Source: Escherichia phage ST4. From it: DNA of 64,000 nt. The stretch lies in sequence record OM982646; one strand, written 5' to 3'. How positions within the stretch are numbered: position 1 is the stretch's first letter; the number at the start of each line of letters is the position of its first letter. The position numbers and the translations under genes were made by a program. Under the pieces are notes generated by a model that saw only the letters and a program-made list of their open reading frames with translations, was not told where the DNA came from and ran no database searches. Shown here in pieces: positions 46,216 to 56,568 of the stretch.

Positions 46216-49200
46216 ATGTCAACATTTGACCGTCTGGCAGGTTTCGCAGACAGCATCACTAATGCTAAGCAAGTCGATGTCTCTACTGCAACCTCTCAGA
46301 AGCAAGCTGCACAAGGGCAAAGCCCTTTCCAATTAACCCCAGAGAATGCTTACAATCTCCAGACTGGACGAGTAGGTAATCTTGGAATCGGTGCATTCGA
46401 ACCAGGTTCACTTCAGGCAGATTTCACTCAAGCCTCCCCTTTAGAAATCATTAATAAGTATGGTAATGAGCAAGGTCTACAGATTATTAATAGCCGAGCT
46501 AATGCTGCTGATGTTGTACGTCAGGACTTATCTAAGCAACGTACTAACGCAGAAGCATTTGGCGATACTCTTTCTGGTGTTGGTCTTGGTGTTGCTAATA
46601 CCCTTGGGGGCATTGCTGCTCTTGGCACAGGTCTGGTCAATGATAATGCCGGGGCATCCATTGCTTCCGGTATGGATTGGTTGAATGAAGGTGTACACAA
46701 TCTCCAGTCTGATGCACTGAATGCTACCCGTAAAGTTGTTCAGAATCAGAACCAGATTTCTGCTCAGAAGAACCAGAAACTCTATGAACAAGACATCAAA
46801 AATGGGGAGAGCGATTTGGTTGCCTCCCTGTCTCGCATTGGTCGTGATGCTTTCGATTCTGTTGCTAATACACTTGATAATGGTATGGCTGCTTCCGACG
46901 GACTGAGTGAAGGTGTTGGTTCTCTCTTTACTGGTGGCCCACTTATTCGTGGTGTATCTGCACTAGGTAAAGTAATGGTTGGTGGTGATAAAGCCGTTAA
47001 GGGTATTACCTTAGCTGCTGGATTAGGTTCACGTCCCGCACAGGTTGCATTGTCTGCTGGTCGTGTTGCTGCACCTGCTATTGCAATCGGTGGTATGGAA
47101 GCTGGTGGTGCATACCAACAGACTGCTTCTGAAATCATGAAGATGTCCCATCAAGAACTGGCAAGTAAGTCTCCTGTTTATCAACAACATATTGCTGATG
47201 GATTACCCCCTGATGAAGCACGTCGTCAGACTGCATCTGAAACAGGTATCATTGCTGCTGGCTTAACTGCTCCAGTTGCTGCTGCTACCGGTCCACTGGT
47301 ATCCAAGTTTGAACTTAATCCACTTAAGGTAGGTTCACTGGCTGGTGCTGGTTCCAATATGCTACGTGAGACTGTAGAGGAAGGTATTCAATCCGGCTTC
47401 GGTCAGTTCGCACAGAACACTGCAATCAAAGAAAATGTTGATGCTACTCGTGACACTCTCAAGGGAGTCGGTGAGCAAGCAGGTCTGGGTGCACTTTACG
47501 GCTTTGGTAGTGCTGGGGTTGCTCAGGCTCCTGGTGCAACTGTTAAAGCAGTTGGTGCTTCTGCTGGTCCTGCTCTCCGTACTACCCTGGCTGGTGCTTC
47601 TCTGGTCGGTAAAACATTAGCAAAAGCTGCATCTCCTCTTACTAACATCCTGGTTCAACGTGGTGAAGAAGTTGCTAAGCGTAATGAACAAGCATCCCCT
47701 GTAGCTGATGCTACGGTTAATGCTGCTGCACAGGAAGCTGCTGCTCAGGCAGAGCAAGCACAAGCAACTGTACAGGAAGCAGTAGATGCAATGGATATCA
47801 CTCCAGAAGAGAAGGCTGCTGCTACTCAGTATGCTGCTGACTTAACTCAGGCAATGAAGTTTGACCCAGTAGAATTGGAACAAGCTAATCCAGCAATCCG
47901 TGAAGCTGTTTCTGGTTCCACTAACCGTGTAGAAGCTATTCAGAAGATGGCTGACCTGGTTAATACTGCCGAAGACCCTAACGTTCAAATGGAAGCAGCA
48001 ATCCAGATGTATGACAATATCATGTCTATGGATAGCTTCATTAACCGTGACCCGGGTGCTCTGGCTAATCTTGAACAGGGTTCCCCTGCTGCTGCAATCG
48101 TAGACCAGTTCTCCGGCCTGATGGCTAACGTACAGAATACCCCTAAAGTACTTCGTGCATTCCGTGCCATCCATTCCATGATTCAGGAACAGGCTGAAGC
48201 AGGTAAACTGAAAGCTACTGAAGAAGCTAATCAAGCCCAAGCAAACAACATTGCTATGGCTGCTGATGTGTCTCCAGAAGTACTGGATGCAGATTCAGTT
48301 AACATGGTTCTTAAACATGCAAGTGAAGGTAAGATTACACTGGGGAATCGTCAACGTGCTGCCCTGCAATCTGCTGCTGCCTTGTTACAGGGTGCACGTG
48401 AGTTCGACGCTAAAGCAGAAGAACTGGGCTTACGTCCTCAAGACATTGTTAGTAAACAGATTAAAACCGACGAGTCTCGTTCTAATGAAGGACAGTACTC
48501 TGCGTTGCAACATGCGAAACGCATTCGTTCTGCGTATAACTCTGGTAACTTCGATTTGGCCTCCGCTTATCTGAGCGACTTTATGAAGTTCGCCCAGCAC
48601 ATGCAGAATAAGGTCGGAGCGTTGAATGAGCATCTGATTTCTGGGAATGCGGATAAGAATAAGTCTGTTCATTATCAGGCTCTCTCGCCCTCCCGTGAAT
48701 GGGTACGTAGTCGTACTGGCCTCGGTGTCAATCCTTACGATACCAAGTCTGTTAAGTTTGCCCAGCAAGTAGCACTGGAGGCCAAAACCGTAGCTGATAT
48801 TGCTAACGCACTTGCTACGGCTTACCCGGAGCTTAATGTTTCTCATGTGAAAATTACCTCGTTGGATTCACGTCTGAACAAGCCAGCTGCCCAGGTAGTT
48901 AAAGAGTTCCGTCAAGGTGGTCTTGATGCCACTCAGTCTCAACAGACCAATGAACCAGTGAATCAGGTTGATAAAACTCCTGCACCAGTGCAAGAGGACA
49001 CTACTACTGTACAGCCTAAAGCTAAACCAGTGGTAGAAAATAAGACTGCTCCTACTAAAGAGACTAGTCCAAAAACAGAAGAAGTCTCTACTACTAAGCC
49101 TGAAACAGTAGATGCTACCCTTACTAATAAGGATACCATCCAGGAAGTAGCCGAAACCAAAACAGAAATGGAAACAGTGTTCCCTGTCTATAACAATGAA

Positions 49201-56568: not shown

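Follow-up and report, generated by a model that had tools for sequence, protein, structure and literature searches.

The giant virion RNA polymerase gene of Escherichia phage ST4, an ortholog of N4 gp50

The sequence record OM982646 of Escherichia phage ST4, of which a stretch of 64,000 nt (the window) was analysed here, contains on its plus strand an open reading frame (ORF) of some 10.4 kb. A gene of this size raises two questions: whether it really specifies one continuous polypeptide and, if it does, which enzyme lies within it. We consider it almost certain that the gene encodes the virion-packaged, injected single-subunit RNA polymerase (RNAP) of a Gamaleyavirus (Schitoviridae, N4-like) and is thus the ortholog of N4 gp50, the 3,500-residue virion RNA polymerase (vRNAP) with which N4-like phages, having injected it, transcribe their early genes. 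Within this family the gene at 46216-56568 is an ordinary ortholog that shows no departure from its relatives and brings nothing new beyond its correct annotation; the gene has been published previously, as have its domains and structure, the absence of cysteine from its product, the HExxH motif and the relationship to gp16-type ejection proteins.

A single reading frame and its relatives

The comparison with N4 gp50, which had been suggested in a preliminary description of this DNA made from the sequence alone, gave a colinear match over the full length of the protein (E=0). With phmmer, residues 1-3449 of the query aligned with residues 1-3499 of the N4 chain at 5,023 bits (PDB 11gp, 9pnq, 9pnr). 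The set of Pfam domains specific for N4 vRNAP (plug, helical domain, vRNAP_dom and vRNAP_dom_2) was recovered well above the gathering cut-off, which is 27 bits for each of the four (PF21894, 334 bits; PF21867, 190; PF21769, 190; PF21624, 99), and PHROG 2206 'virion RNA polymerase' spans aa 25-3449. The protein is 67% identical to N4 gp50 and 98% identical to its counterpart in Escherichia phage vB_EcoP_PhAPEC7 (Schitoviridae, Enquatrovirinae, Gamaleyavirus). The latter also provides the best DNA match (95.2% over 10,353 bases in one gap-free piece), which falls on a gene annotated 'virion RNA polymerase'; the nearest records are generally Gamaleyavirus genomes in which the gene carries this annotation. 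The proposed assignment to the N4-like phages is therefore borne out by the full-length homology to N4 gp50, by the Gamaleyavirus relatives and by the conserved gene order described below.

The program-made ORF list places the reading frame at 46198..56568 (+), beginning with a TTG codon upstream of an in-frame ATG at 46216. The coding sequence (CDS) at 46216-56568 (+) comprises 10,353 nt, that is 3,450 aa and the stop codon, with no internal stop. Its product starts with MSTFDRLAGFADS, and in the alignment residue 1 pairs with residue 1 of N4 gp50 (MSVFDRLAGFADS). The description of a single uninterrupted ORF of ~10.4 kb and ~3450 aa was accordingly accurate, including its end points. The gene differs from that of PhAPEC7 at 498 nucleotides, and 403 of these differences fall on third codon positions, a bias that is seen along the entire ORF. 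Together the differences amount to 398 synonymous and 72 non-synonymous codon changes spread across all domains. The whole 3,450-aa ORF is under purifying selection.

One might still suspect that a 10.4-kb ORF is an artefact of assembly or annotation in which the genes of an ejection protein, a polymerase and a structural protein have been fused. Its extreme size would fit this idea, as would the flexible linkers that join the three domains and the inconsistent labels of GenBank relatives ('DNA polymerase', 'translation initiation factor 2', 'hypothetical protein'). However, the ORF is free of stops and frameshifts, it is colinear with a chain of 3,500 residues that has been solved experimentally as a single molecule (N4 gp50), and the PhAPEC7 copy has the same length without any frameshift or indel between the two. 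The codon-position-specific divergence continues over the full length, and in 63 phage records a match in one place spans at least 80% of the gene. The large excess of synonymous over non-synonymous changes marks this as a real gene and excludes an assembly artefact; the probability we would leave to the latter is negligible.

The polymerase core and its likeness to T7 RNAP

The domain borders used throughout were transferred by alignment from those of N4 (PMC13492108). All eight published functional residues of N4 that we checked (R119, W129, R424, D559, R666, K670, Y678 and D951 in mini-vRNAP numbering) are kept in the ST4 polymerase domain, with 11-residue contexts that are identical or contain at most 3 flanking differences. 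Across eight vRNAP polymerase domains, which diverge down to 23% identity, 44 columns are invariant and include the six catalytic motif residues. The motifs T/DxxGR, A, B and C are ordered as they are in T7 RNAP, and the spacing from Lys to Tyr in motif B is 8 in both enzymes. The T7-like motifs A, B and C that had been proposed for the central region are hence present and in T7 order (D1523; R1630/K1634/Y1642; D1915). When profiles of the eight vRNAP domains and of seven T7-family RNAPs were compared with hhalign, they aligned over 304 columns (E=5.5e-5) with T/DxxGR, A and B in register.

None of our observations speaks against the identification, but several set limits to it. The best BLASTP match to T7 RNAP is not significant (E=0.11), yet it falls on T/DxxGR. 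A phmmer search of PDB with the polymerase domain, at E<=10, returned N4 chains only and no T7 RNAP, nor did hmmsearch with the eight-sequence vRNAP profile find T7 RNAP in PDB; the Pfam family of T7 RNAP, PF00940, does not match the vRNAP. The hhalign alignment itself has a probability of only 66%, and motif C lies beyond the aligned block. A single-sequence AlphaFold2 prediction of the polymerase domain was unusable (mean predicted local distance difference test score 35.5; predicted template modelling score 0.23). Furthermore, simple hydropathy analysis of the N-terminal domain revealed merely borderline membrane segments, and packaging, injection, hairpin-dependent transcription and autoinhibition are features that the ST4 protein would possess by analogy with N4 and DEV, from which they are taken.

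The comparison with T7 RNAP thus divided by method, being negative with BLASTP and positive with profile-profile alignment. In sequence terms, the T7 likeness of the core is detectable solely at the level of motifs or profiles. A tblastn search with the polymerase domain against the phage collection gave 377 matches, those listed being all N4-like, with no T7-group names in the organism breakdown. The central region is strongly similar to the structurally defined N4 enzyme, so that similarity to a single-subunit RNAP is not lacking. A right-hand fold with palm, fingers and thumb has been established for the N4 domain by crystal and cryo-EM structures (PMC13492108, PMC13434306), and because the AlphaFold2 model could not be used it is on these structures of a 71%-identical domain that the fold of the ST4 core rests.

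A different identity of the enzyme, a DNA polymerase or primase instead of an RNAP, is implied by the records of some relatives. Several proteins with 92-96% identity are annotated 'DNA polymerase', and a right-hand fold with motifs A, B and C is common to single-subunit RNAPs and DNA polymerases of the Pol I family. On the other hand, the RNAP-specific T/DxxGR, the motif B Tyr equivalent to T7 Y639 and the promoter-hairpin contacts are all present, the domain is 71% identical to an N4 enzyme that was crystallised in transcription-initiation complexes, and the curated families of Pfam and PHROG all name vRNAP. Homology to the biochemically characterised N4 enzyme refutes a DNA polymerase or primase, to which we attach practically no likelihood, and we retain the RNAP.

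A practical use of the present analysis is as a warning about mislabelled vRNAP relatives in GenBank. Among orthologs with 92-96% identity, those of PBM-2, PBM-3, HK2 and PD205 are called 'DNA polymerase' and those of KKP 3715 and IME11 'hypothetical protein', while the label is 'translation initiation factor 2' in phi G17 and 'gram positive anchor domain protein' in ECBP1.

A six-frame translation of the whole window contains the motif B pattern R-x3-K-x7-YG[SA] only twice, so that its presence in the vRNAP is not due to chance; the second copy is in a 405-aa ORF at 13357-14574 (-). This ORF is the counterpart of PhAPEC7 RNAP2. The window harbours here a second T7-like polymerase, the two-subunit N4 RNAPII (13357-14574 (-) and 15159-15977 (-)), whose large subunit carries the only other match to the pattern (RSDTKQAVMTAFYGS).

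Flanking domains and the ejection apparatus

The long extensions described on either side of the core are indeed there, with 914 aa on the N-terminal and 1,369 aa on the C-terminal side, and can be specified further as functional ejection-protein modules. For N4, the N-terminal domain is reported to be membrane-associated and to be needed for, or implicated in, injection (PMC13434306, PMC13492108), and encapsidation is reported to require the C-terminal domain, which also has an autoinhibitory effect on the polymerase (PMC13492108, PMC13434306). Pfam scans of the two ST4 domains produced no significant match.

The N-terminal ~1000 aa had been described as rich in Ala, Gln and Gly and of low complexity. 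The enrichment was confirmed (aa 1-906: A 16.4%, Q 7.3%, G 8.8%; rest of the protein ~10-12%, 4.8-4.9% and 6.2-6.8%), but the low complexity was not: just 2.9% of the 12-residue windows in aa 1-906 have an entropy of <=2.2 bits, and the domain retains 60% identity to N4. The sole truly low-complexity stretch is the linker rich in Thr, Glu, Val, Lys and Pro at ~aa 907-987 (~80 aa). The corresponding linker 907-1006 of N4 has likewise been characterised as low-complexity (PMC13434306). A second linker occupies aa 2072-2081. Identity to N4 in the linkers is 30-49%, and deletions relative to N4 comprise blocks of 17 and 6 aa in linker 1 and 8 aa in linker 2. Linker 1 is also the place where two close relatives, PhAPEC5 and Bas96, have an in-frame insert of 133 aa, immediately before the polymerase domain, which is absent from ST4, PhAPEC7 and N4. 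The site corresponds to ST4 aa 982 (~nt 49162); the insert has the composition of a folded domain and is not low-complexity, and a Pfam scan of it found no significant family.

The homology of the C-terminal domain to internal virion protein D (IVP-D) of the T7 gp16 type was described by Hardies et al. 2016 (PMC4819975). We have reproduced it for the C1 part of the domain. A C1 profile matched PDB entry 9sfn_G at E=6.6e-5, and tblastn identified the source of chain G of PDB 9sfn as the largest ejectosome protein of the phiKMV/LUZ19 group, gp37; a literature search on PDB 9SFN found no paper. The reverse tblastn search from gp37 led back to vRNAP genes at 1e-8. In evolutionary terms, the protein can be seen as a T7 gp16-type ejection protein in which a T7-like RNAP is embedded.

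Subdomain C1 contains an HExxH motif. Eight Schitoviridae, which represent seven genera or subfamilies, all have H2184, E2185, H2188, the next Thr and E2261, and the five columns are still invariant when gp37-type ejection proteins of the Autographiviridae are added to the Schitoviridae vRNAPs (10 sequences). The HExxH motif of N4 was noted by Bellis et al. 2026 (PMC13434306) and a putative zinc-binding motif by Lokareddy et al. 2024 (PMC11445570); where these two papers mention the site, they report no activity or function for it. Whether the conserved site is catalytic is a question already posed in the literature. That the HExxH-x2-T ... E-x3-[WY]-G arrangement might constitute a working zinc hydrolase, for penetration of the envelope or trimming of ejected proteins, seems to us rather unlikely; it could also be a structural metal site or a relic. 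No Pfam peptidase family matched significantly (the best, Tox-MPTase4, reached E=0.018 in one of eight members), and the match of thermolysin to the C1 profile was insignificant (E ~0.3).

The invariant HExxH with its distal Glu, together with exposed flexible linkers at the domain junctions and the finding that the N4 polymerase domain has a higher activity on its own than in the full-length protein, where the C-terminal domain autoinhibits it, might also suggest a polyprotein. It would be cut by its own HExxH domain or another protease into separate N-terminal, polymerase and C-terminal products, and the working polymerase would be a fragment of ~1,100 aa. On the other hand, recombinant full-length N4 gp50 stayed intact on purification, 'with no evidence of degradation', and its structure was solved as one chain; a significant match to a peptidase family is missing, and the poor conservation of the linkers (30-49% identity to N4) argues against a conserved cleavage site. 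We thus regard processing as very improbable and favour a vRNAP that acts as one continuous chain.

The gene stands at the end of the late block, in a kept order gp53-gp52-gp51-gp50, followed by a terminator and by a convergent gene of the gp49 family on the minus strand. The terminator at 56575-56598 begins 7 nt past the vRNAP stop codon. This conserved ejection cluster of the Schitoviridae has been described as the functional equivalent of T7 gp14, gp15 and gp16 (PMC11445570). The vRNAP has no Cys among its 3,450 aa, while ~30 would be expected from the 0.87% in the other ORFs of the window (Poisson ~1e-13). Cys is absent as well from the proteins of N4, PhAPEC7 and PhAPEC5 and from all eight divergent polymerase domains. 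It is a published trait of the family, accounted for by transit through the tail and the oxidising periplasm (PMC11445570).

Between the gp52 and gp51 homologs, two genes upstream of the vRNAP gene, ST4 has an insertion of ~600 bp that is absent from PhAPEC7, G7C, PhAPEC5 and Bas96. It holds an ORF of 183 aa at 43628-44179 (+) with a counterpart solely in PGN829.1 (78% identity), annotated as an HNH homing endonuclease. Given its match to PHROG 2081 'HNH endonuclease' (E=4e-35; no Pfam match), the ORF probably encodes a free-standing homing endonuclease inside the ejection-gene cluster.

Early promoters and comparison with known systems

The preliminary description had linked the polymerase to hairpin promoters. 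We searched the window with the core of the N4 P1/P2 template-strand oligonucleotides, CCAWAAG-NNGC-GRA-GCNN-C, permitting <=2 mismatches, and obtained four occurrences where 0.22 would be expected. All four lie at 16.2-20.8 kb on the plus strand, the strand that is the template for the early genes, which run leftward. Three of them fold into stems of 6-7 bp with a GGA loop (z = -3.7 at 16239, -3.3 at 19968 and -2.0 at 20806). These three sites are intergenic and lie upstream of early genes; their PhAPEC7 counterparts at 4991, 910 and 86 are intergenic too. They support the proposed link at the sequence level; the vRNAP would use them as promoters.

The remaining match, at 19708, was rejected as a working promoter since it does not fold (z = +0.78). 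This copy (19708-19726) lies 10 nt upstream of a gp2-like gene (19222-19698), a position at which PhAPEC7 has an intact promoter. In ST4 the intact promoter at 19968 is ~260 bp further upstream, with a 68-aa ORF (19733-19939) in between, and the arrangement suggests an insertion by which the promoter was either brought in or duplicated.

Compared with the PhAPEC7 record, the window as a whole is in reverse-complement orientation and circularly permuted; the position equivalent to the left end of that record is near 21 kb. The minus strand carries the early and middle genes at ~1-21 kb, and the plus strand the late block between ~23.3 and 56.6 kb.

From work on N4 and DEV (PMC13492108, PMC13434306, PMC11445570, PMC4819975), the following sequence of events can be proposed for ST4. 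A few copies of the vRNAP would be packaged by means of the C-terminal domain. Upon infection the Cys-free protein would be threaded, partly unfolded, through the tail and a channel built from the homologs of gp52 and gp51, its N-terminal domain would anchor in the inner membrane and the polymerase domain would refold in the cytoplasm. There it would bind hairpins extruded from supercoiled DNA with the aid of host gyrase and SSB, and early transcripts would start with GTP, the C-terminal domain presumably keeping the enzyme autoinhibited until promoter binding. Early transcription may also help to pull the genome into the cell. The gene settles the identity of ST4, an N4-like podophage of the Schitoviridae (genus Gamaleyavirus), as well as the transcription logic to be expected of it, with a polymerase that is injected, early promoters of the hairpin type and RNAPII as a second T7-like enzyme for the middle genes. 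The features on which this account draws are listed in Table 1.

Table 1. Positions of the vRNAP gene, its domains and key residues, and of neighbouring genes and regulatory elements in the ST4 window
Feature	Positions	Strand	Basis
vRNAP CDS, N4 gp50 ortholog	46216..56568	+	ORF, homology, Pfam, PHROG, codon comparison
N-terminal domain, aa 1-914 (N4 1-919), Ala/Gln/Gly-enriched	46216..48957	+	59.9% identity to N4
Linker 1, aa 915-987, Thr/Glu/Val/Lys/Pro-rich, ~25 aa shorter than that of N4	48958..49176	+	49% identity to N4; composition, entropy, indel map
Polymerase domain, aa 988-2071, equivalent to N4 mini-vRNAP	49177..52428	+	71.4% identity; PDB 2po4/3c2p/3q0a E=0; Pfam PF21867, PF21624, PF21894, PF21769
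Promoter -11 base readers R1084 and W1094 (N4 mini-vRNAP R119, W129)	49465..49497	+	N4 local context; role per PMC13492108
T/DxxGR motif, TRVGR, R1388	50365..50379	+	in register in hhalign; best BLASTP local match, T7 residues 414-441
Motif A catalytic Asp D1523 (N4 D559, T7 D537)	50782..50784	+	invariant in 8 vRNAP polymerase domains; hhalign
Motif B RGIAKNPLTITIYGS, R1630/K1634/Y1642 (T7 R627, K631, Y639)	51103..51147	+	alignment, pattern, hhalign
Motif C catalytic Asp D1915 (N4 D951, T7 D812)	51958..51960	+	alignment; outside hhalign block
C-terminal domain, aa 2082-3450	52459..56565	+	69.4% identity to N4
HELVH (HExxH), aa 2184-2188, C-terminal subdomain C1	52765..52779	+	invariant in 10 sequences, two phage families
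Distal Glu E2261, NE[FY]MAW block, candidate third metal ligand	52996..52998	+	invariant in 10 sequences; putative ligand role
AGGAAA, Shine-Dalgarno-like, 5' of ATG	46204..46209	+	read from sequence; putative function
Intrinsic terminator hairpin between gp51 homolog and vRNAP gene	46129..46148	+	8-bp stem and T-run; PhAPEC7 annotation at equivalent site
Bidirectional intrinsic terminator common to vRNAP gene and convergent gp49 homolog	56575..56598	.	10-bp stem, both strands; PhAPEC7 annotation on both strands
gp53 homolog	40437-43091	+	synteny, upstream of vRNAP gene
gp52 homolog, small co-ejected protein, 0 Cys	43084..43548	+	PHROG 2646; synteny
gp51 homolog, co-ejected virion protein, 0 Cys	44121..46121	+	PHROG 6126; synteny
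Predicted hairpin early promoter, upstream of gp1 homolog (20445-20768, minus)	20806..20824	+ (template)	pattern, fold; PhAPEC7 86-104
Predicted hairpin early promoter	19968..19986	+ (template)	pattern, fold; PhAPEC7 910-928
Predicted hairpin early promoter, upstream of RNAPII small-subunit region	16239..16257	+ (template)	pattern, fold; PhAPEC7 4991-5009

The closest known system is PhAPEC7 gp81 (YP_009056186.1; Gamaleyavirus APEC7), which has 3,450 aa like the ST4 protein, no indels, the same flanking terminators and the same gp51 and gp49 neighbours; it differs by 72 amino-acid substitutions distributed over all domains. N4 gp50 (YP_950528.1; PDB 2PO4, 3C2P, 3Q0A, 9PNQ-9PNW, 11GP, 11GO, 11FW) is colinear from residue 1 to the C-terminus; like the ST4 protein, it lacks Cys and has the HExxH motif and all the residues for catalysis and promoter contact. 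The ST4 protein is, however, 50 aa shorter, with about two-thirds of the difference located in or beside the two linkers, and N4 belongs to the genus Enquatrovirus instead of Gamaleyavirus. The predicted ST4 promoters resemble those of N4 in their stem of at least 5 bp and a 3-nt loop with a central purine, but the loop of N4 P1 is GAA whereas all three ST4 loops are GGA.

With the RNAPs of T7 and the Autographiviridae the vRNAP shares a motif B pattern, R-x3-K-x7-YGS, that is identical in form. The distance from the motif B Tyr to the motif C Asp is 173 aa in T7 RNAP compared with 273 aa in ST4, and T7-family RNAPs contain 8-15 Cys compared with none in the ST4 vRNAP. T7 RNAP also contrasts with the N4 enzyme in that it is made after infection and uses a duplex DNA promoter, while the N4 enzyme is packaged in the virion and reads a single-stranded hairpin, as known from the literature. 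The phiKMV/LUZ19 gp37 (PDB 9SFN chain G) is related to the other part of the molecule: its residues 420-559 match C1, with HExxH-x2-T and E-x3-[WY]-G-x-T invariant, and gp37 and the vRNAP are each the largest protein of a three-gene ejection cluster. In contrast to ST4, where the RNAP lies N-terminal to the IVP-D module, gp37 has no polymerase and carries an annotated endolysin domain.

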